Shown: positions 37,144-55,756, numbered from the stretch's first letter. The stretch is 64,000 nucleotides of DNA from an uncultured Fibrobacteraceae bacterium (GCA_964436825.1 CAYTEO010000001.1:9035-73034); one strand, 5' to 3'. The notes: generated by a model not told the origin, from the letters alone. Program-made: numbers and translations.

Positions 37144-37243
37144 CTCTCTCGGCGCCATGGGCTCCATCCCATCTGCGATGCGACATCCGTGTCCGCAGGG
37201 GCTCCATCCCTGGCGTTCGTCGCTCCCTCATCCACCTGGACGC

Positions 37244-37705: not shown

Positions 37706-37721
37706 CGTCCCTGGAACTCAC

Positions 37722-37790
37722 TTTCACCACAAATCACCATAAATCACCACTCGATGCCGCGACAATACACCGCTCCCCCATGGGTGTCAA
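37722..37790 (-). promoter_or_regulatory. dcw promoter (TTGACA-17 nt-TATTGT) followed by three direct GGTGA repeats at 10-bp phasing (MraZ-box-like operator).
   Basis: Minus-strand sequence: TTGACAcccatgggggagcggtgTATTGTcgcggcatcgagtGGTGAtttatGGTGAtttgtGGTGAaagtgag, followed by the mraZ ATG. Confidence 0.45.
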
Positions 37791-37888
37791 CCCCCGAAAG
37801 CGATTTTTTTCGGGAGGGGGCAGACCACTGGCCATCAGCGTCAACCGATGGTCTTACAATGCGTTACGAGATCCGCAGGAAGTCGGGA

Positions 37889-39187
37889 TCAGCCGCGGGG
37901 GCGGCGGAGTGCTGCCGGCAGGAGGATCCCCGACCAGGGGAGCCCGCTGGCATGACGGAACCGGACCAGCATGACGGCGGCGCCGACGGAATAGGCGATC
38001 GTCGAGGCCCAGGCGGCACCGACCGCCCCGTGGGAGGGGATGAGGCAGAGGCCGGCGGCCAGGTTGACGGCCAGGGTCGCCAGGCTGGCCTGGGTGTTCC
38101 AGCCCGGACGGCCGCGGCCGATGAAATCGGCCGCCAGGACCGATCCCGCCGCGAAGACGACGATCCCCGGCAACAGGGCCCGCAGGGCGACCCCGGCACC
38201 GGCGTAGTCGGGGCCGAACAGGCGCGGGACGACCGCCGGCGCCAGCAGGAACAGGGGAACCGCCGCCAGTCCGGTCGCCCCCACGGCCAGGCGGACCGCG
38301 GCGGCCGATCGCTCGTCGCGGTCGCTCTCCGTCCCGGCCGCCGAGTAGACCAGCAGGGGCTGCAGGGCCCCCGGCAGCAACCAGAGCAATTCCCCCACGA
38401 GGACGGCCACCGAGTAGACTCCCACCACACCGGCCGGGTGGAAGGCGGCGACCACCGCCAGGTCGATGCGCAGGTGGAGCAGGGAGACGACCGCCGAGAG
38501 CTGTCCGAACCGGCCCGACCGCCAGAGGCGAACGATCACCTCGCGCAGGGCCGGCCGGTCCGGCTCCCCCGCCCCCTCGCCACCCTCCCGCAGGGCACGG
38601 GTGCCGAGAACGCTCAGGGCGACCGCGGCCGCCAGCTGGCTGCCGGCGAGGGCGACCAGGACGGCCCCCAGGGAGAGCCTTCCGGCCGCCAGCAGACCAC
38701 CCGCCAGCAGCAACCAGAACAGGGCCCGCAGGGCGCCCACCAGGGGCGGCTGGAAGATCCTGCCCGCGGCCGTCAGGTCGTAGGTGAAGACATCGCTGGC
38801 GATCAGGGCCGCCAGCAGCAGGACGGTCGGCAGGACGACGGTCCAGGTCCCGAGCTCGGCCAGCGGCCCGGCCAGGGCGGGCCAGGCCGGCAGCAGGAAC
38901 CGGCAGGCGGGCAGGGCGAGCACCATCACGCCGGCGATCCAGGCGATCTGGGCGGACAGGATGCTTCGCGCCGGCAGCGTTCCGCGACGCAACAGGGGCA
39001 CGGCGGCCAGCCCGAGCCCCCCGTTCAGCAGCGCCGCACCGGCGGTGGCCGCCAGGACGAGCAGGCTGTAGTGCCCCTGCCCCGCCGGACCCAGTGCCTT
39101 CGCCACGAGCCACCCGGCCACCGCCGCGGCCCCGGCCTGGACGAGCCTGGCGGCAAGGATCACCCCGCCCTGGCGGGCGAGCCTCAC
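37889..39187 (-). CDS. wzx: Polysaccharide/O-antigen flippase (Wzx, MOP superfamily).
   Basis: About 12-14 TM helices with a Wzx-like length. The likely GTG start overlaps the upstream FemAB-like stop (GTGA). Confidence 0.65.
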   Translation of the reverse strand: MRLARQGGVILAARLVQAGAAAVAGWLVAKALGPAGQGHYSLLVLAATAGAALLNGGLGLAAVPLLRRGTLPARSILSAQIAWIAGVMVLALPACRFLLPAWPALAGPLAELGTWTVVLPTVLLLAALIASDVFTYDLTAAGRIFQPPLVGALRALFWLLLAGGLLAAGRLSLGAVLVALAGSQLAAAVALSVLGTRALREGGEGAGEPDRPALREVIVRLWRSGRFGQLSAVVSLLHLRIDLAVVAAFHPAGVVGVYSVAVLVGELLWLLPGALQPLLVYSAAGTESDRDERSAAAVRLAVGATGLAAVPLFLLAPAVVPRLFGPDYAGAGVALRALLPGIVVFAAGSVLAADFIGRGRPGWNTQASLATLAVNLAAGLCLIPSHGAVGAAWASTIAYSVGAAVMLVRFRHASGLPWSGILLPAALRRPRG

Positions 39188-40212
39188 CGGCCTCTCCCCC
39201 GCCAGGCACGCGACCAGCGCACCGGGAACCATTCGCGGCGCCAGAGGCCGCGCATCACCTCCTGCGCCCCGAGCAACCGCTTGAAGTTGGCCACACCCCG
39301 CTGGCCGCCGTGGCCGCCCAGGTCGAGCCAGCGCGCCCCGCGGGCGCAGGCCTCCTGCAGGTCGCCCCAGACCAGGAGTGTCGCGGGAAACAGCTCCTCG
39401 CGTCCGGGCAGGGTGGCACCCAGCCAGGCCGTCACCGTCTCCCCCTCGTGCAGCAGGAGGTGACCGCCCAGGAACTCGTCACCGTGCCGGACGACCGTGC
39501 AGAAGACACGGCCGCCGGCGGCTGCCAGCAGGTCGGCCAGCAGCGCCAGCGGCGGTGGCGTGATCCCCCAGCGCCGGGCCGAGAGGGCGTAGACCGCCAG
39601 GAACGGTTCCGCCACGGCGGGATCGGTGGTCGTCTCCAGGCGGCAGCCCCGTCGCAGGGAACGGTTCCGCTCGTTGCGGCGGTTCTTGCGCAGCTGTTCC
39701 CGCTCGACGGCCTCCAGGCCGGGAGCCAGGTCGAAGACGGCGGCCGGGACCGTCTCGCGGCGCCAGCCCTCCGCCCGGAGATGGCCGGCCAGCGCACCGT
39801 CCCACGGCGGCGGCAGGGAGAGGGAGGCGCTCACCCTGCGGACACCCCTGCCCACCAGCCGGGCCCAGCCCACCGCGCAGGCGGCCACGACCTCTTCGCG
39901 CCGCCGCGCCGGGAGTCCCGCCACGAGCAGCGGCGCTCCGGAGAGGCCCTCGTGCTGCCCCTGGACGACCTCCAGGGGGCCCCGGCGGCGGACGATCCCG
40001 ATCATCCCGGCCAGGGGACGCTCCCCCTCGCTGACCAGCAGCCAGAGGGGACGCCGCCGCGGCAGGTGCCGGCAGAGGGTCGTCGCCCAGACGGGATCGG
40101 CATACAGGGACGGGTGCTCGGCGTCGGCGAGCAGGCGCTCCCACGCCCGCGGCGGGGAAGGCCCCTCGACCAGCGTCACCGACAGTTCCCCCAGCTCCAG
40201 GCGGTCGGGCAT
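39184..40212 (-). CDS. FemAB-like / GNAT-fold acyltransferase (BioF2/CelD-like).
   Basis: 342 aa. Fold-level resemblance to FemAB/GNAT acyltransferases of exopolysaccharide loci. GAGGGGGA RBS. Functional call is tentative. Confidence 0.45.
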   Translation of the reverse strand: MPDRLELGELSVTLVEGPSPPRAWERLLADAEHPSLYADPVWATTLCRHLPRRRPLWLLVSEGERPLAGMIGIVRRRGPLEVVQGQHEGLSGAPLLVAGLPARRREEVVAACAVGWARLVGRGVRRVSASLSLPPPWDGALAGHLRAEGWRRETVPAAVFDLAPGLEAVEREQLRKNRRNERNRSLRRGCRLETTTDPAVAEPFLAVYALSARRWGITPPPLALLADLLAAAGGRVFCTVVRHGDEFLGGHLLLHEGETVTAWLGATLPGREELFPATLLVWGDLQEACARGARWLDLGGHGGQRGVANFKRLLGAQEVMRGLWRREWFPVRWSRAWRGRGR

Positions 40213-40224
40213 GGTGCGTCCCCC

Positions 40225-42630
40225 TCAGCGGACCAGGGAGACCTGGCGGACGACCACGGCGCCTTCCCGGGCGATCCTGACCAGGTAGACCCCCGGCGCG
40301 GCCGGATCCCCGGCCAGGTTCCGGCCGTCCCAGAACGGCTCGTCGTTGGCCACGTGGTCGTTGCGGTAGACGACCTGCCCCTCCAGGTCGTAGATCACGA
40401 CGGCGACACCGCCGGTGATCGCGAGGGATCCCCACTGGACCGGCGCGACGACCCCTCCCACCCGCAGACCGGCATGTCGGCCGGGCCGGAAGGGATTGGG
40501 GTAGAGACGGACCGACGCCAGTGCCGAGCCTTCCTCCATGGCGGCGGTAACGGTCACCAGGACGGCGCCGTTCTCCCCGCTGACCAGGATCCGGCTGCCG
40601 TCGGGGGAGACGGCCGTCTCCCGGAACTTGCCCGGCGGCAGGCCGGCGATGATCGTCGGCGAGTAGAGCACGCCGAGGCCGGCGCGGAAGTAGTCGCCGA
40701 CCGACGTGTAGGGAACGATCGTCGTCGTCTCGCTCCCCTCGTCGACCCGCTCGATCCCCAGGTCGTGGCAGATCCAGGCGCTGCCGGTCCCGTCGACACA
40801 GACGTCCGACACCCCTTCCTGCATCAGGCCGGGCATGGCCGGATCCCGCTTGGCGTGGTACTCGCCCAGCATCTCGATCCCCACGCTGCCGGCGCCGAAG
40901 GAGAGGACACGGAAGTGGGCCAGTCCCGACCCGCCCGCCGCCCAGACGGTCCCGTCGTCGGCGACGGCCAGGGCCCGCGTGCCCGCGAAGCTGTAGAACG
41001 AGCCGGCCGGTGCCGCGTCCAGCCGCGCCCACTGGTCGTCCCCCGTCTCCAGCCAGGTGAGATCGTCCTCCGCGCCGCCGGCCAGGCCGTTGGGGTCCCA
41101 GAAGGCCACGCCCACGTTCTCGACGGCGAAGGCGATCCGGTCGGGCCGCACGACGACGGCGTCACGCACCGTCCCCCCGCCCAGGCCCGCGGCGTCGGTG
41201 GGCAGGTGGAGCCAGGCGCCGGGATCGTGGCCGCGGTCGGGATCGACCAGGACGTGGACCCCGCTGACGTCGCTGCACATCAGGACCGGCCCCGCCGGAT
41301 GGACCTGCAGGGCGACGATCCGATCATCCGGCAGGCCGGAGTTGGTGCGATCCAGGTGGACGAAGCGATCCGACCGGGGATCGAAGTGGATGACACCGCC
41401 GCTCTGGAACTGGCAGAACCAGACGTCCCCGTCGGGGCCGGCCGCGACCGAGAGGATCGGGCCGTCGTCGTCGAACAGGCCGGCGGAGTCGTTGTCCGCG
41501 CTGGCCAGGCGGGTCACCTGCTGCCAGGTATCGCCGTCGCCCCAGGCGATCCCCTCGGCCTGGCGCCCCCCCAGCCAGAGGGTCCCGTCGGAACCGACGG
41601 CCGCACCGTCGCTGTTGACGAAGAAGGGATCGTCGGTCAGGTACTGTGACCACTGGTCCCCGCTGCGACCGGCCACCCACGCGCGCGCCGCGTGCATGTT
41701 GTCGTCGGTGACGGGGGTGGTCCCCCCGACCCAGAGACGGCTGCCGGAGACCAGGGCGTGGGCGCCGTCGCGGGGCAGCGTGACCGGCTGCCAGGCCGCA
41801 CCGTCCCAGCGCCACAGGAGGAGGTCGGCGGCGCCGGCGGCGGCCAGGCACCAGAGGGTGTCGTCCTGGACGGCAAGGGCCGCCGCGGCCCGCCCCAGTG
41901 CCCCCACCGGGACCCAGTCGGCGTCGTCGGGAGCGCGCCGGTAGACGCCGGTGTCGGCGGCCGCCCAGACGGTGTCGGCCACGGCCAGCAGGTCACCGAC
42001 GTTGGTCCCGGCCAGCGACCCGCTCCAGTCCGTCAGCAGGTTGTCGCGCAGCAGGGAGACGCCGGCGTCGGTGCCGATGACCAGGTCGTCCCCGCGCAGG
42101 GCCAGGGCGGTGATCACGTCGCTGACCAGCCCCGGATCCTCGGTGGTGGTGTAGGTCCCGCCCGGCAGGCCGTTGCTGACGAGACCGAACCCGGCCCCGT
42201 CGGTCCCGTACCAGACGCGCTCCGTCTCACCGCGCACGGTCCCGGTGACGGCCGTCACGGCCAGGTCGGCGATGTTCGTCACCTGGCGGAAGACGGGACC
42301 GTCGGCGGCGAGCGTCACCCTGGTCAGGCCGCCGTCGCGTGTCGCCACCCAGAGGTTCGCCCCCGTCCAGGCCAGGTCCGCGATCCGCTGCCCCGACAGC
42401 CCGTCCCCCGTCGTCCAGCGCCGGACCGGGGCGAGATCGCCTGTCGCCAGGACGACGATCCCGCCGTCGGCGAGGCCGCCGTACAGCTCGCCCGAGACCT
42501 CGACCAGCGCGACGCAATCGCGGGCCCCGGGCAGGACGCGGAGGTCCACCGCGCCACGGGCCGGCAGCTGGAGCAGAAAGACCAGGGCGATCGCCAGGCC
42601 CAGCGGCGGGGCGATGCAGCGTCTTCTCAT
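40225..42630 (-). CDS. Secreted beta-propeller (two-component-regulator-propeller / Y_Y_Y-like) protein with a T9SS-type C-terminal sorting domain.
   Basis: Signal peptide MRRRCIAPPLGLAIALVFLLQLPARG. Many W/G-rich blade repeats. The C-terminal about 80 aa (LYPNPFRPG...VVIYDLEGQVV...GVYLVRI) match the Por/T9SS CTD pattern. ATGA overlap with the upstream GT2. Confidence 0.65.
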   Translation of the reverse strand: MRRRCIAPPLGLAIALVFLLQLPARGAVDLRVLPGARDCVALVEVSGELYGGLADGGIVVLATGDLAPVRRWTTGDGLSGQRIADLAWTGANLWVATRDGGLTRVTLAADGPVFRQVTNIADLAVTAVTGTVRGETERVWYGTDGAGFGLVSNGLPGGTYTTTEDPGLVSDVITALALRGDDLVIGTDAGVSLLRDNLLTDWSGSLAGTNVGDLLAVADTVWAAADTGVYRRAPDDADWVPVGALGRAAAALAVQDDTLWCLAAAGAADLLLWRWDGAAWQPVTLPRDGAHALVSGSRLWVGGTTPVTDDNMHAARAWVAGRSGDQWSQYLTDDPFFVNSDGAAVGSDGTLWLGGRQAEGIAWGDGDTWQQVTRLASADNDSAGLFDDDGPILSVAAGPDGDVWFCQFQSGGVIHFDPRSDRFVHLDRTNSGLPDDRIVALQVHPAGPVLMCSDVSGVHVLVDPDRGHDPGAWLHLPTDAAGLGGGTVRDAVVVRPDRIAFAVENVGVAFWDPNGLAGGAEDDLTWLETGDDQWARLDAAPAGSFYSFAGTRALAVADDGTVWAAGGSGLAHFRVLSFGAGSVGIEMLGEYHAKRDPAMPGLMQEGVSDVCVDGTGSAWICHDLGIERVDEGSETTTIVPYTSVGDYFRAGLGVLYSPTIIAGLPPGKFRETAVSPDGSRILVSGENGAVLVTVTAAMEEGSALASVRLYPNPFRPGRHAGLRVGGVVAPVQWGSLAITGGVAVVIYDLEGQVVYRNDHVANDEPFWDGRNLAGDPAAPGVYLVRIAREGAVVVRQVSLVR

Positions 42631-44648
42631 GGGGCTCTCCTGTTCTCAGGGGCAGTCGGGTTGATGCTAACGCGACCGCCGGGCGTCGTCCAGAGCCGGC
42701 GCCAGCGCTCGCCGCGCGTGGTGCCGGCCCAGGGACCGGTCAGACCGGGGCGACCGGGGGTGAGGCACCAGCTCTCCCCCGCCGCGACCGGTTCCTCCCC
42801 TGCCGACAGGGGCATGTCGCTCCAGAGGGAGAGCGCCCCCCGACGCAGCGCCGCCAGCAGGACGGGCTGCCGCCAGAGGGATCGCGGCCGGCCGTCGGCA
42901 TCCACGTGGACCGCCACCTGGCTTCCCTGGCCGGTCAGCGGCAGCACGACGACACGATCGTCGCGCGACCGACGGTTCACCAGCCGGCCCAGCATGCCGG
43001 CCGGCCAGAGCAGGACCCCCGCCGACAGGTCCGCCAGCCGCCTGCCGAGACCGGCCAGGGGATGTCCCTCGCCGGGGTCCAGGACCAGGCTCGGGAGCGG
43101 ACCGAAGGCCTCCCCCCTCCCGCCGGCGACGGCCAGGGAGGCGGCAGGGACCTGCCAGCGCAGGCGGACCCGGCGCCGACGCAGTTCCCGCAGCAGGCGC
43201 AGCTCGTCCGGATCGCCCGCCGGCCAGGCGAAGAAGACGACCTGCCCGATGCGGTAACGATCGACGACGGTCCCCATCTCCGCGCGCACTCCCAGCTGCG
43301 GCAGGGAGACCTTGCCGGCGACGATCCGGTCGTCGCCGAGATAACCCACCAGGTCCAGGCCCAGGCGGCGGGGATCCCCGACGGCGGCCAGCCAGTCGGT
43401 GAGCCCTGCCGGGGGATCGACCAGGAGGGTCCGTTCCAGGGAGAGGTGTCCCTTCGTCATGCGGCGACGCAACCGTTCCCAGAGCGTGCCGCCGAGACCG
43501 AGGGACAGCACCAGCAGGGGGAAGAACAACAGCAGGACGGCCCGGCTGTAGACGACCTGGTGGCTCAGATAGGTGCTGGCCAGCAGCAGCAGCGCGACCG
43601 TCCCCGCCTGCTGCAGGTCCTCCCGCCAGCCGGGGCGCCAGCGGCCGGTGCGCCGCCGGTAGCGGCCCCGCAGGACGAAGGTGACCGTCGCCAGCAGCGC
43701 GGCGTAGAGCTGCAGGCCGTGGTACTCCGACCACGGGAACAGCGGCTCCGCGAACAGCGGCTGCAGCAGGCGGCGCACCAGGTAGGCCCCCCCGAAGGCC
43801 AGGTTGACGGCCGCCATGTCCAAGAGCCAGGCCAGCAGGGTCCCCAGGGGGCCGGACCAGCGCTTCAGGGCGTAGACCAGCAGTCCCCATTTCTCGTAGA
43901 AGGAGATGAGGCTGGCCAGGTGGAGCCAGAAGCCGCGCCGGGTGATCCCGCCTGCGCTGGCGCGCCGGTGCCTGTGGACGAACCGGGCCACCGGCGTGTA
44001 ACGCACCTCGTAGCCGGCCTGCCACATCCGGTAGCACCAGTCCACGTCCTCGAAGTAGAGGAAGAAGCGCTCGTCCATGGGACCGACCCGCCGCAGCGCC
44101 TCGCGGCGCACCAGCAGGCAGCCGCCCAGGACCCAGTCGACGGGCCGGGCCGACAGGTGGTCGAAGTCCCGCATCAGGTGCAGTTGCACCGCCCTGGCCC
44201 GCGGGAAGAGCCTTCCGAGGATGGTCCGGCGCAGGACCAGCGTGGTGAAGGTATAGAAACGGCGGCACGACTCCTGGATCGAGCCGTCGGGGTTGAGCAG
44301 CTGGGGACCGATGATCCCCGCCCGGGGATGGGCGTCGGCGTCGGCCAGCAGGGCGTCGATCGCACCGGGCAGGACGACGATGTCGGGATTGAGGATCAGC
44401 GTGTAGTCGGCCTCGCAGAGGGCGAGCCCCGCGTTGACGCCGGCCGCGTAGCCCACGTTGCGGCTCTGGAAGAGCCAGTCGACGCCGGGGAACCGTTCCC
44501 GGACCGCCGGCAGGCCAGGGTCGTCGGAGGCGTTGTCGACGACGATGATGCGGTACTCGCAGGCGGGCGGGTTCTCCTGCAGCGACCCGAGGCAGCGGGC
44601 CAGATCGTCGCTCGTGTTGTAGTGGACGATGACGATCGAGAGCTTCAC
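42627..44648 (-). CDS. GT2-family glycosyltransferase fused to a polytopic membrane/Rossmann-like C-terminal region.
   Basis: N-terminal SIVIVHYNTSDDL...VVDNASDD...DVDWCYRMWQAGY GT2 motifs (DxD). Four or more TM helices and a C-terminal region with a weak PGLTGPW resemblance to sugar-phosphotransferases. GTG start. Confidence 0.65.
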   Translation of the reverse strand: MKLSIVIVHYNTSDDLARCLGSLQENPPACEYRIIVVDNASDDPGLPAVRERFPGVDWLFQSRNVGYAAGVNAGLALCEADYTLILNPDIVVLPGAIDALLADADAHPRAGIIGPQLLNPDGSIQESCRRFYTFTTLVLRRTILGRLFPRARAVQLHLMRDFDHLSARPVDWVLGGCLLVRREALRRVGPMDERFFLYFEDVDWCYRMWQAGYEVRYTPVARFVHRHRRASAGGITRRGFWLHLASLISFYEKWGLLVYALKRWSGPLGTLLAWLLDMAAVNLAFGGAYLVRRLLQPLFAEPLFPWSEYHGLQLYAALLATVTFVLRGRYRRRTGRWRPGWREDLQQAGTVALLLLASTYLSHQVVYSRAVLLLFFPLLVLSLGLGGTLWERLRRRMTKGHLSLERTLLVDPPAGLTDWLAAVGDPRRLGLDLVGYLGDDRIVAGKVSLPQLGVRAEMGTVVDRYRIGQVVFFAWPAGDPDELRLLRELRRRRVRLRWQVPAASLAVAGGRGEAFGPLPSLVLDPGEGHPLAGLGRRLADLSAGVLLWPAGMLGRLVNRRSRDDRVVVLPLTGQGSQVAVHVDADGRPRSLWRQPVLLAALRRGALSLWSDMPLSAGEEPVAAGESWCLTPGRPGLTGPWAGTTRGERWRRLWTTPGGRVSINPTAPENRRAP

Positions 44649-44658
44649 TCCGCCTCCC

Positions 44659-45366
44659 CTAGGGGATGCGCCGCAGGCGCAATGACCAGACGACCCACAT
44701 GGCCTCCAGGATGATCCGCTTGGACATCTTGGAGACGCCCACCTGCCGGTCGACGAACAGGATGGGAATCTCCTTGATCCGGAATCCCCGCTTCCAGCAG
44801 TGATAGTTCATCTCGATCTGGAAGGAGTAGCCGTCGCTGCGGATCCGGTCCAGGGGCAGCGCCTCCAGGACGTGGCGCCGGAAACACTTGAAACCGCCGG
44901 TGCTGTCCTTGATCGGCATCCCGGTGACCAAGCGGGCGTAGATGTTGGCCCCGACGCTCAGCACGAGCCGGCGCAGCGGCCAGTTGACGACCGTCACGCC
45001 GTTGAGGTAGCGGCTCCCCAGGACGACGTCGTAGTCCCGGATCTCCCGCAGGAAGGTGTCGATCGCGCGGGGGTCGTGGCTGAAGTCGGCGTCCATCTCG
45101 AAGATGGCCTCGGCGTCGGTCTCGCGCAGGGCCCACTGGAAGCCGGCGATGTAGGCTGCTCCCAGGCCCGCCTTCACCGGCCGCAGCAGCAGGTGGACGC
45201 GTTTTCCGTATTCCGACAGCGCGCGGACGACGTCCGCGGTGCCGTCGGGCGAGCTGTCGTCGACGACCAGGACCTGGAGCCGGGGGTCCCGCTCCAGGAC
45301 GGCGGGAACGATCCGGCCGATGTTCTCTGCTTCGTTGTAGGTGGGGATGACGACCAGGCTCTTCAC
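44659..45366 (-). CDS. Polyprenol-monophosphate sugar synthase (Dpm1/Ppm1-like GT2).
   Basis: VVIPTYNEAENI...VVDDSSPDGT...EMDADFSHDP...GFKCFRR is the canonical Dpm1-family motif set. The GTG start overlaps the upstream YfhO-like stop (GTGA). AGGAGGA RBS. Confidence 0.8.
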   Translation of the reverse strand: MKSLVVIPTYNEAENIGRIVPAVLERDPRLQVLVVDDSSPDGTADVVRALSEYGKRVHLLLRPVKAGLGAAYIAGFQWALRETDAEAIFEMDADFSHDPRAIDTFLREIRDYDVVLGSRYLNGVTVVNWPLRRLVLSVGANIYARLVTGMPIKDSTGGFKCFRRHVLEALPLDRIRSDGYSFQIEMNYHCWKRGFRIKEIPILFVDRQVGVSKMSKRIILEAMWVVWSLRLRRIP

Positions 45367-47840
45367 GGTCGGTCTTCCTCCTGGGCGTGCGGGGTCCGTG
45401 TCGGGGCGGGAACGCCGAGCACCAGCCAGAGCAGCACCAGCAGCAGGGCCGCACCGCCGACCGGCAGGGCCTTGTGCAAGGCGGGATCGCGGTACACGAA
45501 ACGGACCTCGTGCTCCCCCGCCGGCAGCGCCACGGCCCGCAGCAGGCGGTCGGCCCGCAGCAGGGCCGCCGGCGTGCCGTCGACGGTGACCCGCCAGCCG
45601 GGCAGCCAGAGGTCGGCCAGCACCAGGATCGCCGGGACATCGGCCCGGGTGCGCAGCGTCACCCGGTCCAGGTCGTCCTCCACGTAGGTGACCGGGGGCA
45701 GGACCGTGTCGACCGGTGTCGGTGCCGGGTCGGGGACCGCTTCCAGGCGGACGGTGTCCCGCCACCTGAGCCGACCCGCGGCGATCCCGTCCAGCAGGGA
45801 GGACAGGGGAGCCTCGGTCCGCTGCCAGCGGGTGACCAGGCGGGCCCGCGGCAACGCATCCCTGATCCGGTAGGCGACCAGGCCGTCGCCGACGACCGGG
45901 TCGGGGTCCACCGCCGCCCCCAGTTCCGCCAGGACGGGGAAGGCGTTCTCGGGCAGCGGCCCGTCGGTGACGAGGAGGGAGGCCCCCAGCCAGGAAGCCA
46001 GCCGCCCGGACGGCCGGCGCTGGTCGAAGAGACGCCGACGGACCTCCTCGGCGGCCGCGGGCTTGGCCGGATGGTACCCCCCCAGGGAGCGGACGCCGGC
46101 GAGCATCCCCTCGTTGGTGCTCGACGCACCGCCCAGGGGCCAGATCCGCTCGTGGCCCGCCTGCCCGGCAATCCGCTGCCAGACCGGATCGACACCCGGC
46201 CTGGTCGCCGCCGGCCGGGGTGCCAGGACCGCGGGGGCCGGCACGAGCCGCCCGCCGCCCTGGGTGGTCCGGGCCACGGCGTGGAGGCTTCGCTCGGGAT
46301 GGACGATCCGGCGGTCGACCGTCGCCAGGTCGACGACGACGAGCAGGACGACGGCCCAGGGCGCCAGCTCCCGCCAGCGACCGCCGCGCGGCAGCAGGAA
46401 CCGCCACCAGGCGCCGAGGGCGACGAGGATCAGGCCGATCCGCAGCAGGTCCGCGCGGTGGAGACGCCAGGCCAGTTCCAGCAGGGAACCGGCCGGCGCC
46501 GGCTTGCCGCCGTCACGGGCCAGGGCCGTCAGGTGGGCCGCGTAGCCGTCACGCGCCAGGCCCAGTCCACCCGCGGCCAGCAGGACGCCGACGAGCAGCA
46601 GGCCCATCCCGCTCCAGGCCCGCTGCCGCGCTCCCAGTTCCCGCCACCGGTCCAGGCCGACCGCGGCCAGGACGGCCACGGCGAAGCCGGTGAGCGTCAG
46701 GATCATCGACGGGACCCGGAACTTGTTGAAGTAGGGCAGGAAGCGGTAGCAGAGGTCGTACAGCGGCGGGAAGAAGTTGCCGCAGGCGATCAGCAGGCTG
46801 ACGAAGGCGGTTACCGCCAGGGTCGTCGTCACCCAGTCCCGCCTCCGCCAGAGCCCCAGCAGCGCCAGCCCCACGGCGACCAGGCCCAGGTAGTTGGGGT
46901 AGTCGGTGAACGGCATCCTTCCCTGGTAGGTCGCCTTGCCGAACCCGGCCGCCGACGGGAGCAGCAGGGTGTCCCATTCCCGTGGCGACAGGCTCCAGCC
47001 CGTGGCGTACTCGTACGCCGCCCCTCCCCCTTCGGCCGCCCCCCGCACCGACCAGCCGGCGTACTCGTGGACGGGCCACAGGAGGATCGCGCCGATCCCG
47101 CCGGCCAGCGCCAGGCTCGCCAGCAGCAGGAAGCTCGCACGCCGGAAGTCGGGCCAGCGCGCGGCGCCACTCCCGCGCCAGACGGCGATCAGCCGGCCCA
47201 GCCAGAGCAGGCCGACCAGCAGACCCGTGTAGTAGATGATCTGGATGTGGCCGCGCAGGACCTCCAGGCCGAACACCAGCGCCAACAGCGGCGCCGTCCG
47301 CCGTCCCCGGCCCTCGAGCAGCCCGAGGGTCAGTCCCGCGACCCACGGCAGGTACATGGCCGTCGCCAGCTTGGAACCGTGGCCGAAGGCGGCCCAGGCC
47401 GTCACCTTGGGGAACATCAGCCAGAGGGCGGCCCCCAGCAGCCGGCTCGCCGTCGACAGCCGCCACCGTCCCAGCAGCCAGTACATGCCCAGGCCACCGA
47501 ACAGCAGGTGTGCCAGCAGCCAGGTCAGGGGCGGGAAGCCCAGATGATCCTGCAGGAAGGTCAGCACCTCGCCGGGCGGATAGACGAACCGGGTGTAGGT
47601 GAGCGAGCCGAACGTCGGCATCCCCAGGAAGAGATACGGGTTCCAGAGAGGATAGTGTCTCTGCGCCAGGGCGGCGTTGCCGACCAGGGTGAACCCCAGC
47701 GCGTTGTTGCTGTCCGCGGAGCCGAAGACGGCCCCGCGCAGCAGCGGTTCCGGGTAGACGATCGCGAGCAGGACGAGCACCCCGGCCACCCCGGGGAGCC
47801 AGCGGACAAGCGCGGGATGTTCTCTCAGCGGGGATCGCAC
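45363..47840 (-). CDS. Large polytopic membrane protein, YfhO-like GT-C fold glycosyltransferase (825 aa).
   Basis: About 13 predicted TM helices in the N-terminal 450 aa, followed by a large extracytoplasmic C-domain. Size and architecture fit the YfhO/GT-C family. Family assignment is tentative. Confidence 0.5.
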   Translation of the reverse strand: MRSPLREHPALVRWLPGVAGVLVLLAIVYPEPLLRGAVFGSADSNNALGFTLVGNAALAQRHYPLWNPYLFLGMPTFGSLTYTRFVYPPGEVLTFLQDHLGFPPLTWLLAHLLFGGLGMYWLLGRWRLSTASRLLGAALWLMFPKVTAWAAFGHGSKLATAMYLPWVAGLTLGLLEGRGRRTAPLLALVFGLEVLRGHIQIIYYTGLLVGLLWLGRLIAVWRGSGAARWPDFRRASFLLLASLALAGGIGAILLWPVHEYAGWSVRGAAEGGGAAYEYATGWSLSPREWDTLLLPSAAGFGKATYQGRMPFTDYPNYLGLVAVGLALLGLWRRRDWVTTTLAVTAFVSLLIACGNFFPPLYDLCYRFLPYFNKFRVPSMILTLTGFAVAVLAAVGLDRWRELGARQRAWSGMGLLLVGVLLAAGGLGLARDGYAAHLTALARDGGKPAPAGSLLELAWRLHRADLLRIGLILVALGAWWRFLLPRGGRWRELAPWAVVLLVVVDLATVDRRIVHPERSLHAVARTTQGGGRLVPAPAVLAPRPAATRPGVDPVWQRIAGQAGHERIWPLGGASSTNEGMLAGVRSLGGYHPAKPAAAEEVRRRLFDQRRPSGRLASWLGASLLVTDGPLPENAFPVLAELGAAVDPDPVVGDGLVAYRIRDALPRARLVTRWQRTEAPLSSLLDGIAAGRLRWRDTVRLEAVPDPAPTPVDTVLPPVTYVEDDLDRVTLRTRADVPAILVLADLWLPGWRVTVDGTPAALLRADRLLRAVALPAGEHEVRFVYRDPALHKALPVGGAALLLVLLWLVLGVPAPTRTPHAQEEDRP

Positions 47841-47916
47841 GGTCCCTCCCGGTCCTCGCCCCCGGGACGACCGTCCGGGGAACTTCCAGTGTAACCGACG
47901 GTTGCCTCGGCGTCCA

Positions 47917-48849
47917 TCACTCTCGCGCGCCTCGGCGGCCAGGATAGGGGCGTCCGGTCAGCTCGTCCAGGGCTCCCTGGACCAGGGCCAGCGCCGCGGC
48001 CGGACTCCCGTGCCAGAGCCACCAGGCGACGTGGCCGGCATGGTAGGCGAGCTGGGCCGGCCAGAGGGTCGCGCGCGCCAGGCCGTGCCAGTGCCGGCGG
48101 AGCAGGCGGATGTGGCTGCGGGAACGCAGGTAGAGCCGCTCCGGGGAGTCGCCGCCCAGCGACTGGCTCACCTTGTGCAGGACCAGGGCTGCCGGCACGT
48201 GGAGGATGCGCCCCCCCGCCTCCCGGATCCGCAGGCAGTAGTCTGAATCCTCACCGTAGAGCCGGAACTCCTCGTCCAGGTCCCCGACCTCCTCGACGGC
48301 ACGCCGGGACAGCAGCAGGGCGCAGCCGGTGCCGTACTCGATGTAACGCGAGGTCAGGGGGCGACCGCCCGCCTCCTGCCGGATCCCGGCGTGCCGGACC
48401 CAGCCGGACCAGCGGCCGACGATCCCCCCGTCGTACCAGATCCGGGCCGGATCGTCGGCGTAGCAGATACGCGGCGTGGCGGCCCAGACCGCGGGGTCGG
48501 CCGCCGCGGTCCGGACCAGGCGCTGCAGGCTGCCGCCGGGGACGATGGTGTCGTTGTTCAGCAGCAGGACCCAGTCGGGGCAACCGTCGCGGCGCAGCCG
48601 GCGCAGGGCCAGGTTGTTCCCCCCCGCCCACCGCAGGTTCTCCGGCGCGGCGAGGATCTCCACGTCGGGATAGCGGTGACGGACGAAGTCGACCGAACCG
48701 TCGGTCGAGGCGTTGTCCACCAGCAGGATCCGCAGGTCGCGGTAGCCGCCGGCCAGCAGGGAACCGAGACAGTCGTCCAGCAGGTGTCGTCCGTTCCAGT
48801 TGACGACGACGACCGTCAGCGTGGGCCACGTGGAGAACTCAGTCGGCAT
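47917..48849 (-). CDS. GT2-family glycosyltransferase (rhamnosyl/glycosyl transferase-like).
   Basis: LTVVVVNWNGRHLL...LVDNASTDGS...YGEDSDYCLR DxD/ED motifs. Confidence 0.75.
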   Translation of the reverse strand: MPTEFSTWPTLTVVVVNWNGRHLLDDCLGSLLAGGYRDLRILLVDNASTDGSVDFVRHRYPDVEILAAPENLRWAGGNNLALRRLRRDGCPDWVLLLNNDTIVPGGSLQRLVRTAAADPAVWAATPRICYADDPARIWYDGGIVGRWSGWVRHAGIRQEAGGRPLTSRYIEYGTGCALLLSRRAVEEVGDLDEEFRLYGEDSDYCLRIREAGGRILHVPAALVLHKVSQSLGGDSPERLYLRSRSHIRLLRRHWHGLARATLWPAQLAYHAGHVAWWLWHGSPAAALALVQGALDELTGRPYPGRRGARE

Positions 48850-49813
48850 CGCCGGTCCGGTCCGCGGGGGCGATGATCTCCCGCACCATGTACTCGCTCT
48901 CGGGGTGTCGTCCCGCCACGACGAGCTCGGCCAGCAGGCCGAGGCTGATGAACTGGACGGCCATCAGCACGAGGGTCACCCCCAGCAGCATCAGCGGGCG
49001 GATCCGCAGCCCGTGGCCGGTCAGCCACCAGCCGAGGAACCAGGCCATGATCCCGCCGCCGACCGCCAGCAGGGCCACGCCGATGCGGCCGAACAGGTGC
49101 AGGGGCGAGGTGCCGCGGGAGGTCAGGAAGAGCATGGTCAGCAGATCCAGGAACCCGTTGAGGAAGCGGGCCAGACCGTACTTCGTCGTCCCGTACTTGC
49201 GGGGGTGGTGGCGGACGGGCAGCTCGGTGACGCGGAAACCGCCCCGGTGGACCAGGGCGGGGATGAACCTGTGCAGTTCCCCGTAGAGGCGGACGGCGGC
49301 CAGTGCCTCGCGGCGGTAGGCCTTCAGGCCGCAGTTGAAGTCGTGGAGCCGCAGGCCGACGGCCCGGCTGGTCACCAGGTTGAACAGGCGCGAGGTCTGG
49401 TTCTTGACGAAGCCGTCCTTGCGATCCTGCTTCCAGCCGGAGACCAGGTCGTACCCCTCCTCCAGCTTGGCCAGCAGCCGCGGGATCTCGGCCGGGTCGT
49501 CCTGCAGGTCGGCGTCCATGGTCACGACGTAGCGTCCCTGCGCGCGCTGGAAGCCGGCCGACAGGGCCGCCGCCTTGCCGAAATTCCGGGAGAAGCGGAT
49601 CCCCCGCACGGCCGGGTACCGGTCGGCGAGGCTGCGCAGGACCGCGGGCGTGTCGTCGCGGCTGCCGTCGTCGATGATCCAGACCTCGTGGTTCAACCCC
49701 AGCGGAGCGACCGCCGCCTCGATCCTCTCGACGAGTTCGGGCAGGGATTCCGCCTCGTTGTAGGCCGGGATGACGATCGACAGATCGCACCCGGCTGATC
49801 GCTCACGCCCCAT
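48839..49813 (-). CDS. Polyprenyl-phosphate glycosyltransferase (ArnC/GtrB-like GT2) with two C-terminal TM helices.
   Basis: LSIVIPAYNEAESL...IIDDGSRDDT...MDADLQDDP plus a C-terminal TM pair, as in ArnC/GtrB. Start at MGRERSAG. The upstream part of the ORF is an artifact. Confidence 0.75.
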   Translation of the reverse strand: MGRERSAGCDLSIVIPAYNEAESLPELVERIEAAVAPLGLNHEVWIIDDGSRDDTPAVLRSLADRYPAVRGIRFSRNFGKAAALSAGFQRAQGRYVVTMDADLQDDPAEIPRLLAKLEEGYDLVSGWKQDRKDGFVKNQTSRLFNLVTSRAVGLRLHDFNCGLKAYRREALAAVRLYGELHRFIPALVHRGGFRVTELPVRHHPRKYGTTKYGLARFLNGFLDLLTMLFLTSRGTSPLHLFGRIGVALLAVGGGIMAWFLGWWLTGHGLRIRPLMLLGVTLVLMAVQFISLGLLAELVVAGRHPESEYMVREIIAPADRTGDAD

Positions 49814-50846
49814 GACTGCGCTGTCTCCTCTGGACGGCCCACCGAACCTCCTCCCGCAGCCCGTCGCGGAAGGGGGTCGTGGCCCTGTACCCCAGTTCGG
49901 CTGCGATGCGGGAGGGGTCGGCCCAGGTATCGTGGACGTCGCCCTTCTCCCGCTCGCGGTACTCGATCCGCACCGTGACCTCCGGGGCCGAAACGGCCAG
50001 CAGGTCCTGCAGGATCTCCAGCGCCTCGGCCAGGGAGATCCGCGCCCCGCCGCCGACGTTGTAGACGGCCCAGCGGCGCGGTGTGGCCACGGCCAGCAGG
50101 TTGGCCCGCACGGCGTCGGCCACGAAGGTGAAGTCGCGCGTCTGGCTCCCGTCGCCGTAGACGATCCACGGCCGCCCGTCCAGGGCCGCGTCGATGAACT
50201 TGCGGAACGCCATGTCCGGCCGTTGCCGCGGCCCGTAGACGGTGAAGTAGCGCAGGCTCGTCGTCGGCACGCCGAAGTTCCCGCTGTACAGGACACAGAG
50301 ATGCTCCGCCGCCAGCTTGGTCACCCCGTAGGGCGAGAACGGCTGCGGCAGGGCGGTCTCGGCCACGGGCAGGTCCTCGCGGTCGCCGTAGACGGAGCTG
50401 GAGCTGGAGTAGACGAACCGCTCCAGGGTCGCGGCGACCTCGGGATGGCGGCACGCCTCCAGCAGGTGCTGGGTCGCCAGCACGTTCCGGTCGGTGTATT
50501 CCCGGAAGTGCCCTCCCCAGCTGGCCCGCACGCCGGCCTGGGCGGCCAGGTGGAAGACGAAGCGCCGGCCCCGCAGCAGCTCGACGGCGTCGAGATCCAG
50601 CAGGTCGCGCTCCAGGAAGGTGAAGCCGTCGCGCCCGGCCAGGGCCGCCAGGTTCTCCCGCTTCAGTCCCGGATCGTAGTAGTCGGTCAGGCAGTCGACT
50701 CCGGTGACCTGGCAGCCGCGATCGAGGAGGGCCTCGGCCAGGTGGCTGCCGATGAAGCCGGCACAACCGGTCACGACGACCGGCGTCCCCGGTGCCAGGA
50801 GCTCGGCCAGCCGCTGCTGCACCGCCGAACGCGCGTCATCGTTCAT
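49803..50846 (-). CDS. NAD-dependent sugar-nucleotide epimerase/dehydratase (SDR family).
   Basis: VVVTGCAGFIGSHL Rossmann motif and a YxxxK catalytic pair (YGVTK). 347 aa. Confidence 0.8.
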   Translation of the reverse strand: MNDDARSAVQQRLAELLAPGTPVVVTGCAGFIGSHLAEALLDRGCQVTGVDCLTDYYDPGLKRENLAALAGRDGFTFLERDLLDLDAVELLRGRRFVFHLAAQAGVRASWGGHFREYTDRNVLATQHLLEACRHPEVAATLERFVYSSSSSVYGDREDLPVAETALPQPFSPYGVTKLAAEHLCVLYSGNFGVPTTSLRYFTVYGPRQRPDMAFRKFIDAALDGRPWIVYGDGSQTRDFTFVADAVRANLLAVATPRRWAVYNVGGGARISLAEALEILQDLLAVSAPEVTVRIEYREREKGDVHDTWADPSRIAAELGYRATTPFRDGLREEVRWAVQRRQRSHGA

Positions 50847-53559
50847 GCTGCCCGTTCCCTCCCGTGGTCCCCGGGTCGGAGCCGCCGTCGCCCTGCTCCC
50901 GCTCCATCTCGGCGAGGGCCCGTTCCATGGCGGGGTCCTCCTGCCCGAAACGCTCCCGCCACGCCTCCGCGATGGCGCGACACCCCTGCAGATCGGCACG
51001 GTAGCGGGCCAGCTTGAACAGCATCCGGTACGGGAGCGGATCTCCGGGGTCCGCCGCCCGGCGGCGCTGCAGCCAAGCCTCGGCCAGGGAGTCGGCGCCC
51101 GCCGTGTAGAGGGTCTCGACGACCTGGCCGACGGTCCGTTCCTCGTCCAGCTGCGGGATCCGCCCGTGGATGGCGTCGAGATGGGCCAGGGCGGCAGCCG
51201 GCCGGTGGCGCTCGATCAGCAGCAGGGGATAGATGTCGGCGACCATGGGGAAGGTCGGGTCGAAGCTGCGGGCCATCTCGAAGGCCGCCTCGGCCTTGCC
51301 CAGGACGTGCTGGTAGAGGGAGTCGTCCTCGACGGGGATGGTCCGGGCCTGCTGCAGCATGGCGTAGCCGGCGCGGATCATGCCGGCCGGGTAGTTGCCC
51401 ATGAGGTTGCTGGTCGTCGTGTCGAAGAAGACGTCCCGGCGGCGCTCGCCGTCGTCGGTGTAGAGGCCCTCGAACTCCCAGGTGCGACCCTCGCCGGCGA
51501 GCTGGGCGGGATCGCCCGCCAGCAGCGGCGCGGGATCCAGGCTGTTGAGCTCGGCGAAGCGGCGGCGACGGCGGTCGCTGTCCCCGGTCAGGACCGCCCG
51601 GTAGTCGTAGACGCCGTACGCGTTGGCCAGCAGGCGCTCGGGATCGACGGTAGGGTTGCCGTCCTGCGACGCCCTGCCGGTGAAGCGGTAGGCCAGTCCC
51701 TCCATCCGCAGCATCCCGTAGTAGCGCTTCATGTTCTCCTGCGGGATCGTCACGGCGAAGTAGACCGGTCGCCGCCCGGCGTTCTGCAGGATGTTGTGGA
51801 CCACGTAGTCCTTGACCATCAGGTACTCGCGCCTGCCGGTCTCGGGGTCCTCGTAGATGACCGGCCGCAGTTCCTCCAGCTCGCGGTCGCTGTAGGAGAT
51901 CTTCACGGTGGGCGGGTAGCGCTTGAGCTGCTTGTTGTACCAGGCCAGGTTGACCAGGCTCAGGTTGACGATGGAGACGTCCTTGCGGAAGCCCTCCACC
52001 TGCTGGAGGTACCAGACCGGGAAGGTGTCGTTGTCGCCGTTGGTGAACAGGATGGCGTCGTGGTCCAGGCCGGCCAGCATGTTCCAGGCGTACTCCCGCG
52101 GCGCCCAGTTCAGGTGGCGGTCGTGCTCGAACCACTTGGTGTGGCCGGGCACGAGCAGCGGCAGCGCGGCGACCAGCACCAGGGCGCCGGCGACGACCTT
52201 GACGACCGGGCCGATGCGCACCGCCGCGGCCCCGCTCCGCGCGACCGCATCGCGACCCTTCTCCAGCAGGGGACCGGCCAGGTACCGCAGCAGGGCGGCG
52301 GCGCCGATCCCGATGAAGACGGCGAAGTAGAGGAAGCCGGCGAAGAAGAAGTAGTCGCGGTCACGGACCTCGTGGTCGGTGAAGTTCAGGTAGACGTTCA
52401 GGATGTCGGCGTTGATCAGGTAGTTGACCAGGATCAGCCACGCCAGAGGCCGGGCGCGCAGCAGGGCGTGGACGGCCCCCAGCAGTCCCAGGAAGACCGG
52501 CACCAGGAAGTTCAGCCAGCGGGCACCGCCGCCCAGGCGCGGGTCCAGGAAGGTGAACTGCTGGACGAGGTAGTGGTAGTAGTAGCCGATCTGCCAGAGG
52601 AAGTCGGCCTTGCGCTGGAAGGGGTTCATGGGCGGATACTGCTCCCGCCGCAGGACCTCCATGAGGGTGGCGAAGTTGTCCGGCTGCGACTGGTTGATGG
52701 CCGGGTCCAGCCCGGCGCGGATCAGCAGGTAGATGTGGACCGACAGGCCGAGCAGGAACAGCCCGCCCCCGATCAGGACCAGCGGCTTGCCGCCGTGGGC
52801 CCGCACCAGGGCCCAGGCCGCCAGGGCGACCACGGCTCCGACGAGGACGAAGTCGTCCTTGATCATGGTCGAGACCATGAACAGGCCGAGCACGGCGCCC
52901 AGGCCGAGCAGGTCGAGGACCTCGATCCGGCGCTCCCTGGCCAGCAGGACCAGGACGAAGATCCCGGGGAAGACGAGCAGCGTTCCCAGGTGGAACCCGA
53001 CGCCGAGGCCCAGCAGGTAGATCATCAGCAGCAGCAGCCGGTTGCTCGCCTCCCGGCGGCGCACGTCGTACCACTTCAGGGCCAGCCAGGTCAGGAAGGT
53101 GATCATGAACGCCGCCAGGCCGTAGACCTCGGCCTCGATGGCGTTGTTCCAGAAGGTGTGGCTGAAGGTCAGCATCAGGGCGCCGACCAGCCCCCCGGCA
53201 TGGGGCAGCCACCCCGCGTCGGGATCGGCCCGGCGGGCCAGCCGGACGATGACCAGGTAGGTGAACATGACCGCCAGGGCGCTGAAGAACCCGGACATGG
53301 CGTTGACGGCCCTGGCCGTGCTGCCCAGCACCGGTGCCAGCAGCAGGTCGAAGCAGCGGCCCACCAGGACGTACAGGGGCGTGCCGGGCTGGTGGGGGAT
53401 CCCCAGGATGTGGCTGGTGGTGATGAACTCGCCGCAGTCCCAGAAACTGAGCGTCGGCGCCATCGTCAGCAGGTAGACGATCCAGGCGAGCAGGAAGACG
53501 CCGCCGGCCAGCCGGGGCGTCCACCGATCCTGTCGAGTCGTCGTGGGCATGCTCTTCAT
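50836..53559 (-). CDS. DUF2723-family (TMEM260-like) GT-C membrane glycosyltransferase with a C-terminal TPR-like soluble domain.
   Basis: N-terminal PTLSFWDCGEFITTSHILGIPHQPGTPLYVLVGR signature of DUF2723. About 11 TM helices. A C-terminal 300 aa helical domain. 907 aa. Confidence 0.6.
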   Translation of the reverse strand: MKSMPTTTRQDRWTPRLAGGVFLLAWIVYLLTMAPTLSFWDCGEFITTSHILGIPHQPGTPLYVLVGRCFDLLLAPVLGSTARAVNAMSGFFSALAVMFTYLVIVRLARRADPDAGWLPHAGGLVGALMLTFSHTFWNNAIEAEVYGLAAFMITFLTWLALKWYDVRRREASNRLLLLMIYLLGLGVGFHLGTLLVFPGIFVLVLLARERRIEVLDLLGLGAVLGLFMVSTMIKDDFVLVGAVVALAAWALVRAHGGKPLVLIGGGLFLLGLSVHIYLLIRAGLDPAINQSQPDNFATLMEVLRREQYPPMNPFQRKADFLWQIGYYYHYLVQQFTFLDPRLGGGARWLNFLVPVFLGLLGAVHALLRARPLAWLILVNYLINADILNVYLNFTDHEVRDRDYFFFAGFLYFAVFIGIGAAALLRYLAGPLLEKGRDAVARSGAAAVRIGPVVKVVAGALVLVAALPLLVPGHTKWFEHDRHLNWAPREYAWNMLAGLDHDAILFTNGDNDTFPVWYLQQVEGFRKDVSIVNLSLVNLAWYNKQLKRYPPTVKISYSDRELEELRPVIYEDPETGRREYLMVKDYVVHNILQNAGRRPVYFAVTIPQENMKRYYGMLRMEGLAYRFTGRASQDGNPTVDPERLLANAYGVYDYRAVLTGDSDRRRRRFAELNSLDPAPLLAGDPAQLAGEGRTWEFEGLYTDDGERRRDVFFDTTTSNLMGNYPAGMIRAGYAMLQQARTIPVEDDSLYQHVLGKAEAAFEMARSFDPTFPMVADIYPLLLIERHRPAAALAHLDAIHGRIPQLDEERTVGQVVETLYTAGADSLAEAWLQRRRAADPGDPLPYRMLFKLARYRADLQGCRAIAEAWRERFGQEDPAMERALAEMEREQGDGGSDPGTTGGNGQHER

Positions 53560-53638
53560 CCTCGTCGTTCCGGTTGCCGTACAGCCATGGCCGCGGCGAA
53601 CCTAGCACATGGTGAGCAGGAGCAACAAGAACGGGTCG

Positions 53639-55752: not shown

Positions 55753-55756
55753 GCTG

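Follow-up and report, generated by a model that had tools for sequence, protein, structure and literature searches.

Lipid-linked sugar synthases that act together with membrane-embedded transferases are known from Firmicutes, actinobacteria, enterobacteria and eukaryotes. In the CsbB-GtcA-YfhO operons of Bacillus, Staphylococcus and Listeria, a cytoplasmic family 2 glycosyltransferase (GT2) loads undecaprenyl phosphate (C55-P), and a YfhO-type enzyme of the glycosyltransferase C (GT-C) class transfers the sugar outside. In Firmicutes, this system glycosylates lipoteichoic acid (LTA) or wall teichoic acid (WTA) (PMC5836110, PMC8035078), and the YfhO of B. subtilis has a 389-amino-acid (aa) loop between its last two transmembrane (TM) helices (PMC5836110). 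In mycobacteria, the TM-less synthase Ppm1 is encoded in an operon with the membrane protein Ppm2, which it binds, and its product feeds GT-C enzymes (PMC3485146); the GT-C mannosyltransferases of actinobacteria that depend on polyprenyl-phosphate mannose are Pmt, MptA/B and PimE. Here we describe a pair of overlapping genes in a 64,000-nucleotide (nt) stretch of DNA (the window) from an uncultured bacterium labelled Fibrobacteraceae (GCA_964436825.1, CAYTEO010000001.1:9035-73034). The upstream gene encodes an 825-aa membrane protein of the YfhO superfamily, and the downstream gene a 235-aa protein of the Dpm1/Ppm1 type.

The system is of a well-known kind, a lipid-sugar synthase with a GT-C transferase, found here in an uncultured bacterial lineage, and is ordinary in that it involves no new principle. 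Its value lies in the context that it provides for an uncharacterised and very large clade of proteins, which includes the YfhO of Bacteroidota. The coupling of a member of this clade to a Ppm1-type synthase, in a cluster beside cell-division genes, is a testable hint as to the donor substrate of the clade.

The overlapping genes and their products

An earlier interpretation of the window made from its sequence alone (the sequence-only reading) had described two genes at 44659-47840, with the start of the small gene overlapping the stop of the large gene as GTGA, and our analysis found both at these coordinates, on the minus strand and with this overlap (Table 1). Nearly all genes of the window, which has a GC content of 72%, are on that strand. 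Both open reading frames (ORFs) are real genes and did not arise by chance. This is because the third-position GC in the open frame of the large ORF (45363-47957) is 0.91, an independent gene call yielded the same two genes on a JGI metagenome contig that encodes identical proteins (3300023503, Ga0256915_100142), and homologues number in the hundreds. A longer upstream start for the small gene was considered and rejected, as the independent gene call and the N-termini of homologues fit the GTG at 45366. The GGAGGA hexamer near the end of the large gene may function as a Shine-Dalgarno element for the small one.

Table 1. Features of the gene pair and its surroundings, with positions counted from the first letter of the window (FCB, Fibrobacterota-Chlorobiota-Bacteroidota; AF2, AlphaFold2).
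Feature	Position	Strand	Basis or remark
825-aa predicted GT-C glycosyltransferase, YfhO superfamily (FCB/Bacteroidota-type clade)	45363..47840	-	GTG start; AF2, Foldseek, hhalign
235-aa TM-less Dpm1/Ppm1-type polyprenyl-phosphate glycosyltransferase, probable polyprenol monophosphomannose synthase	44659..45366	-	PF00535, phmmer, Foldseek
GTGA stop/start overlap of the 825-aa and 235-aa genes	45363..45366	-	GTG 45366-45364, TGA 45365-45363
GGAGGA, Shine-Dalgarno-like hexamer	45376..45381	-	9 nt 5' of small-gene GTG, within end of large gene; sequence reading
Large protein, TM domain with 13 predicted TM helices	aa 1-515 (47840-46296)	-	AF2 model
Large protein, predicted periplasmic mixed alpha/beta domain, ~270 aa	aa 516-785 (46295-45486)	-	AF2 model
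Large protein, predicted C-terminal (14th) TM helix	aa 786-808 (45485-45417)	-	AF2 model
Asp43 codon, candidate catalytic residue in first periplasmic loop	47712..47714	-	invariant in 63/63 family members
Conserved gene array, glycosylation	37889..56542	-	gene calls, Pfam, tblastn against 85 loci, NCBIfam; mraZ next
ArnC/GtrB-like polyprenyl-phosphate glycosyltransferase, 324 aa	48839..49813	-	other lipid-sugar synthase of the locus
TMEM260-like (DUF2723) GT-C membrane protein	50836..53550	-	PF11028, E 5.9e-51; other GT-C, conserved in cluster

The assignment of the small protein as a Dpm1/Ppm1-type polyprenyl-phosphate glycosyltransferase, which the sequence-only reading had based on four motifs, is well supported by sequence comparison and by a structural model. 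All four motifs were found: PTYNE (aa 8-12), DDSSPDGT (aa 36-43), DADFSHDP (aa 92-99) and GFKCFRR (aa 158-164). A Pfam scan returned the expected GT2 family (PF00535, E 5.9e-29, aa 5-169), and the top phmmer match in the PDB was the dolichyl-phosphate mannose synthase (DPMS) of Pyrococcus furiosus (5mlz, E 2.7e-26, aa 1-227). The AF2 model (pLDDT 80.6) has a glycosyltransferase A (GT-A) fold, for which Foldseek again ranked 5mlz first (TM-score 0.80), followed by ArnC and GtrB; all of the top 13 fold matches were polyprenyl-phosphate glycosyltransferases.

The functional residues reported for the archaeal DPMS (PMC5526996), which serve donor, metal or acceptor-phosphate binding or belong to the A-loop, were placed on the phmmer alignment of the small protein with 5mlz, and 11 of the 13 are identical. 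These are E12, D39 (D37 in the small protein), D89 (D92), D91 (D94), H94 (H97), R117 (R119), R131 (R133), S135 (S137), F177 (F182), R202 (R207) and K208 (K213). In the numbering of the small protein, D37 corresponds to the guanine-binding Asp, D92 and D94 belong to the DAD motif, R207 and K213 lie in the A-loop, and D92 and H97 are the contacts to O2 and O3 of mannose. The acceptor-phosphate trio of R119, R133 and S137 is invariant across a 32-sequence alignment. Helices were modelled at the positions of the two interface helices of DPMS (aa 131-148 and 216-231), the second having a pLDDT of only ~45-55 and the amphipathicity of both being judged by eye. No hydrophobic segment or TM anchor was found in the small protein. 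Over its full length, it is 46-48% identical to Actinomycetota proteins named polyprenol monophosphomannose synthase by the Prokaryotic Genome Annotation Pipeline (PGAP), and ~50% identical to Bacteroidota proteins of that name (46-51% overall). The source annotations of its close homologues are polyprenol monophosphomannose synthase or dolichol-phosphate mannosyltransferase. Judged by these similarities, the sugar that it loads is most likely mannose.

An AF2 model of the large protein, built from 63 homologues, had a pLDDT of 89.6 and a pTM of 0.91. The 19 best Foldseek matches in the PDB were all GT-C enzymes, beginning with AftD (E 1.3e-8) and ArnT (E 1e-5), followed by STT3, EmbA/B and PglB, and in the model the protein has the GT-C fold that had been supposed for it. 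The sequence-only reading also expected about 13 TM helices in the first 450 residues and then a large soluble domain. The helix count and the order of the domains held, but the membrane domain extends to about residue 515, and a further TM helix (aa 786-808) follows the soluble domain. We assigned the topology by our own reading of the modelled helices together with the positive-inside rule, and with this assignment every Arg-rich loop is on the cytoplasmic side. The 63-member alignment contains 68 invariant columns, and the predicted cytoplasmic loops are free of them. Eight are within TM helices or at their periplasmic ends, and the others belong to the soluble domain or to periplasmic loops. 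This distribution is as expected of an enzyme with a periplasmic active site. Asp43 is placed by the model between TM1 (aa 9-28) and TM2 (aa 106-124), and aligns with an Asp in the YfhO proteins of Bernardetia and Bacteroides and, with low confidence in a permissive hhalign run that reached the N-terminus, with the invariant D47 of canonical YfhO. By analogy with GT-C enzymology, Asp43 may be catalytic.

That the large protein is YfhO-like was shown by profile-profile comparison, because the search with the Pfam YfhO model (PF09586), by which the sequence-only reading would have had it checked, remained under the threshold (22.5 against 28.5 bits) and covered only 43 C-terminal residues (aa 747-789). 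Some orthologues pass this model at 30.7-36 bits, again at the C-terminus only, and NCBIfam models gave no match to the large protein. Pfam scans of ten more distant representatives of the family, tried as a route to a full-length match, gave a C-terminal match at most. In the PDB, phmmer found nothing for the large protein and the family profile gave only a chance-level match, so that no member of the family has a solved structure; a tblastn search against plasmids also found nothing.

For the profile comparisons, a distant and more YfhO-like relative (P0238) served as a bridge to YfhO references, which were the YfhO gene of a GT2-GtrA-YfhO operon carried by a plasmid of Bacillus thuringiensis (682 bits to PF09586, full length) and the PGAP-named YfhO proteins of Bernardetia and Bacteroides finegoldii. 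With hhalign, the family of the large protein matched 42 Firmicutes YfhO proteins in a collinear alignment of 527 columns that runs from TM6 to the C-terminus (96.7%, E 3.6e-10), the Bernardetia YfhO (99.7%, E 5.9e-27) over 733 columns and the B. finegoldii YfhO (99.9%, E 6.9e-34) over 711 columns. The first 200 residues aligned with canonical YfhO in the permissive run only. The B. finegoldii protein itself matched the Firmicutes YfhO family (97.4%, E 1.1e-11) over 125 C-terminal columns only. Based on these alignments, the large protein belongs, within the YfhO superfamily, to a clade of the Bacteroidota/FCB type and is distant from the enzymes of teichoic-acid glycosylation. Our data give no support to the analogy with that process drawn in the sequence-only reading, and the large protein is much nearer to its Bacteroidota relatives than to the YfhO of Firmicutes.

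Nor is a YfhO-type protein unusual in a probably diderm organism, as had been thought. The family profile detects 57,960 representative proteins at E <= 0.001, relatives of the large protein occur in at least 590 species genomes, and proteins annotated as YfhO family by PGAP are present in Bacteroides, Parabacteroides and Bernardetia. According to a July 2026 preprint, in which the Pfam YfhO profile was run against 10,805 Bacteroidota genomes, YfhO is largely conserved across the phylum and predicted to be essential in many Bacteroidales (bioRxiv 10.64898/2026.07.27.740950).

Conserved adjacency and proposed function

To compare gene order, 14 proteins of the window were searched by tblastn against 85 loci, and precomputed gene calls and Pfam matches were used for six homologous places, all six of which had the same gene order. 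Pair counts were adjusted by hand for contig ends and for one split match. The Ppm1-like gene directly follows the YfhO-like gene in 64 of the 74 loci with room downstream, in keeping with the suggestion that the two are conserved as neighbours. The ten exceptions are all Marinimicrobia/Fidelibacterota-type loci, whose GT-C proteins are 27-32% identical to the large protein. In each of the 66 loci with the pair, the gap from the stop of the YfhO-like gene to the equivalent of residue 1 of the small protein is 64 nt or less, and in 25 of these every candidate start of the small gene overlaps the upstream stop. The pairing holds down to 30% identity of the GT-C, and the synthase is much the better conserved of the two across loci (59-83% against 31-57% identity).

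The array was found in metagenome-assembled genomes (MAGs) labelled Krumholzibacteriia/Krumholzibacteriota, Eisenbacteria, "Fibrobacteraceae", "Gemmatimonas" or just "bacterium". We noted that labels vary widely among MAGs with the same cluster (Krumholzibacteriia, "Fibrobacteraceae", "Gemmatimonas sp." and "Gemmatimonadales" in the titles of loci L006-L085), and that L070, a related locus lacking the pair, carries the label "archaeon". It is probable that part of this taxonomic labelling is in error.

On balance, we incline to the view that the gene pair is a co-translated module for extracytoplasmic glycosylation, in which the small enzyme feeds the GT-C. In this scheme, the 235-aa enzyme would act at the cytoplasmic face of the inner membrane and load polyprenyl phosphate with a hexose taken from a nucleotide sugar, the most probable pair being mannose and GDP-mannose. 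The lipid-linked sugar would then be flipped across the membrane, for which the same operon offers candidates in its LPG_synthase_TM-type and MOP-family proteins. The 825-aa GT-C, with a periplasm-facing active site that includes Asp43, would pass the sugar to a periplasmic acceptor, which may be a secreted protein or the glycan that the surrounding genes produce. Mycobacterial Ppm1 with Ppm2 is a precedent for such a module. Given the overlap of the genes and the lack of a membrane anchor in the synthase, we suggest that the small protein docks on the GT-C made just before it.

Several observations weigh against this proposal. The array encodes a second synthase, the ArnC-like protein, and a second GT-C, the TMEM260-like protein, and it is tightly packed, so that adjacency alone is insufficient to establish a partnership. 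No cluster protein had a Pfam match to the GtrA flippase family, and the functions of members of the YfhO clade are themselves predictions from sequence. In the ten exceptional loci, the available flank of the YfhO-like gene (2.2-10 kb) contains no Ppm1-like gene; four of these Marinimicrobia-type loci, with full flanks, have an ArnC-like gene ~8 kb upstream of the YfhO-like one, Ppm1-like and TMEM260-like genes both being absent within 10 kb. Bacteroides and Parabacteroides have both yfhO and a Ppm1-like gene, but the two are not adjacent. As for the sugar, specificity is not readable from sequence, two of the 13 DPMS residues, which contact sugar or metal, are changed (Q93 to S96 and K178 to Q183), and the small protein falls under every cut-off of the NCBIfam equivalogs PpgS, AglJ, ArnC and PgfS.

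The presence of two synthases and two GT-C proteins permits another pairing, which is possible though we consider it unlikely, in which the small enzyme supplies polyprenyl-phosphate mannose to the TMEM260-like GT-C, and the YfhO-like enzyme uses the ArnC-like product or a diphosphate-linked oligosaccharide. With the latter donor, it would be an O-oligosaccharyltransferase, the role for which Bacteroidota YfhO, a full-length homologue of the large protein, is an in silico candidate as the missing enzyme (bioRxiv 10.64898/2026.07.27.740950). Such an exchange of partners would suit the Pfam name of PF11028, "Protein O-mannosyl-transferase TMEM260-like", and the reports that animal relatives are O-mannosyltransferases, as well as the Marinimicrobia-type loci that keep the YfhO-like and ArnC-like genes together and the separation of yfhO from Ppm1-like genes in Bacteroides and Parabacteroides. 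It is less easily reconciled with the Ppm1-like gene overlapping or abutting the YfhO-like gene wherever the pair occurs, while the TMEM260-like, epimerase and ArnC-like genes form an overlapping trio of their own. The oligosaccharyltransferase role in Bacteroidota is also a prediction, and the best remote match in the same preprint was a mannosyltransferase dependent on dolichyl-phosphate mannose (bioRxiv 10.64898/2026.07.27.740950). Similarly, AftD and ArnT, which rank ahead of STT3 and PglB among the fold matches of the large protein, are users of monophosphate-linked sugars.

If the two proteins are partners as we propose, the sugar could still be other than mannose, such as glucose, N-acetylglucosamine, N-acetylgalactosamine or another, which seems to us improbable. 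The fold and most of the residues are common to ArnC and GtrB, and the two substituted contacts leave some latitude; the highest NCBIfam score of the small protein was to PpgS, which loads N-acetylgalactosamine, albeit at 70.5 bits against a cut-off of 370. On the other hand, its full-length identity to the Ppm1-type group is much above that to any other characterised group, and the guanine contact and both mannose contacts are retained. We give very little credence to the idea that the large protein is a structural or transport protein with a GT-C-like fold and that the overlap is mere operon packing. It is true that the activity of the clade is known from prediction and that no Pfam or NCBIfam functional model covers the membrane domain. 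However, the invariant polar residues cluster in periplasmic loops, including the Asp of the first loop, as in active GT-C enzymes; loss of the homologous YfhO abolishes glycosylation of LTA and WTA (PMC5836110); and the gene is within a cluster that consists almost wholly of glycosylation genes.

The surrounding glycosylation cluster

The cluster, which we counted as 13-14 genes and which adjoins mraZ, begins with genes for a methyltransferase, a family 4 glycosyltransferase, a flippase-like protein (LPG_synthase_TM), the TMEM260-like protein, an NAD epimerase/dehydratase, the ArnC-like GT2 and another GT2. The YfhO-like and Ppm1-like genes come next, followed by those for a GT2 with a WbaP-N-like membrane domain, an 801-aa secreted protein, a FemAB-like acetyltransferase and a MOP flippase. 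Flippase-type proteins are present in two forms, LPG_synthase_TM and MOP-family. Among the cluster genes scanned with Pfam and NCBIfam, none was for teichoic-acid synthesis. The 324-aa ArnC-like protein has C-terminal TM segments (aa 238-299) and matched the NCBIfam models ArnC (E 1e-60) and PgfS (E 7.5e-42), both under the equivalog cut-offs. Its presence together with the TMEM260-like GT-C bears out the statement of the sequence-only reading that the locus has a second lipid-linked-sugar module. Taken as a whole, the array probably represents a conserved envelope glycoconjugate pathway of this uncultured lineage, with a housekeeping role.

The array is directly upstream of mraZ and of cell-division and cell-wall genes (37244-56542, minus strand), and the adjacency to mraZ was seen in most of the related loci that extend far enough (e.g., L002, L007, L008, L011, L027 and L032). 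Between mraZ and rsmH lies a gene for a STAS-domain protein (36769-37227, minus strand), an insertion that is unusual where a division/cell-wall cluster begins. The gene following the pair encodes a 673-aa protein (42627-44648, minus strand), in which an N-terminal GT2 is fused to a stretch similar to the membrane/CoA_binding_3 portion found at the N-terminus of sugar transferases of the WbaP/WcaJ type. No phosphoglycosyl-transferase catalytic domain was detected in this protein, and there was no obvious priming transferase among the cluster genes. Some related loci have an extra CapD/PglF-like dehydratase gene (Polysacc_synt_2) between those for the 801-aa and FemAB-like proteins (L003, 16003-17487; L004, 15867-17345), which the window is without. 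In low-GC Marinimicrobia-type loci (L081, 6244-13508; L057 and L084), genes for a sulfotransferase, a TagF-like protein and a Wzx-type flippase precede the YfhO-like gene and a histidine kinase gene follows it. The TagF-like protein is a CDP-glycerol glycerophosphotransferase (PF04464, E 2.6e-67), a polymerase of the teichoic-acid kind, and its gene adjoins that of the YfhO homologue in a presumed diderm.

The 801-aa protein (40225-42630, minus strand) is encoded two genes downstream of the pair and is conserved; it has a signal peptide, and its Trp-rich repeats are similar to propeller blades. Its match to Reg_prop was sub-threshold (E 0.017), as were those to sorting domains of the type IX secretion system (T9SS), and its C-terminus matched the C-terminal region of PorZ (E 6e-8). 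We rejected its identification as PorZ, since the match is limited to the C-terminal sorting-domain region and the propeller repeat is sub-threshold. It may be cargo of the T9SS, or else a PorZ-like protein that handles glycans and is linked to the cluster. The Bacteroidota O-glycosylation motif, D(S/T)(A/I/L/V/M/T), occurs in it in three copies, which is not above its frequency in other cluster proteins and so does not support it as a preferred target.

A more speculative extension of these data, which we regard as a long shot, is that the FCB-type YfhO clade provides the missing enzyme for joining glycans to Ser/Thr in the superphylum's general system of protein O-glycosylation. It would then use a monophosphate-linked hexose donor in the manner of a protein O-mannosyltransferase, rather than act en bloc as an oligosaccharyltransferase, and its targets would be secreted or T9SS-cargo proteins, for example the 801-aa protein. 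Bacteroidota O-glycans start with a hexose, for which O-linked mannose or another hexose has been suggested (PMC10897501). If this idea were true, the conserved coupling to a polyprenyl-phosphate mannose synthase in a Krumholzibacteriota-related lineage would point to a monophosphate-linked hexose donor. For the question of the missing O-glycosylation enzyme, the gene coupling adds a little new context.

Comparison with described systems

The module proposed here follows the same logic as CsbB-GtcA-YfhO, and both canonical YfhO and the large protein have a large extracytoplasmic domain before the last TM helix. The two systems differ in the partner GT2, which here is of the TM-less Dpm1/Ppm1 type, whereas the CsbB/GtrB type has two C-terminal TM helices. 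They also differ in that this locus has no GtrA-family flippase and no sign of teichoic acid, and in that its host is probably diderm.

In its synthase, the locus is closer to actinobacterial Ppm1 with Ppm2. The small protein is likewise TM-less, and its gene directly follows a membrane-protein gene, as ppm1 follows ppm2 in M. smegmatis. In contrast to Ppm2, however, the upstream membrane protein here is itself a predicted GT-C and not an Lnt-like acyltransferase, and unlike the GT-C enzymes that depend on polyprenyl-phosphate mannose it is in the YfhO superfamily, not in the PMT or Mpt families. The archaeal DPMS of P. furiosus is the best match of the small protein in both sequence and fold, with the differences that it has four C-terminal TM helices, which the small protein lacks, and that the lipid here is presumably of the undecaprenyl type and not dolichyl. 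Human DPM1 is likewise without those four helices.

The large protein has its best structural match in mycobacterial AftD (6w98), which is also a GT-C with large extracytoplasmic domains, although AftD is much larger and the similarity is limited to the fold (TM-scores 0.27-0.43, 14% identity and no sequence-level similarity). Its closest described relatives are the YfhO proteins of Bacteroidota. The B. finegoldii protein (WP_022275429.1, encoded next to ahcY/sahH) has only ~24% identity to the large protein, and its gene is not adjacent to a Ppm1-like gene. Despite this, the homology is nearly full-length, and the two proteins are alike in size, architecture, loop motifs and the Asp of the first loop. 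In both, the Pfam YfhO model sees only the C-terminal part (75-100 residues in the Bacteroidota proteins), and B. finegoldii is likewise a diderm host of the FCB group.

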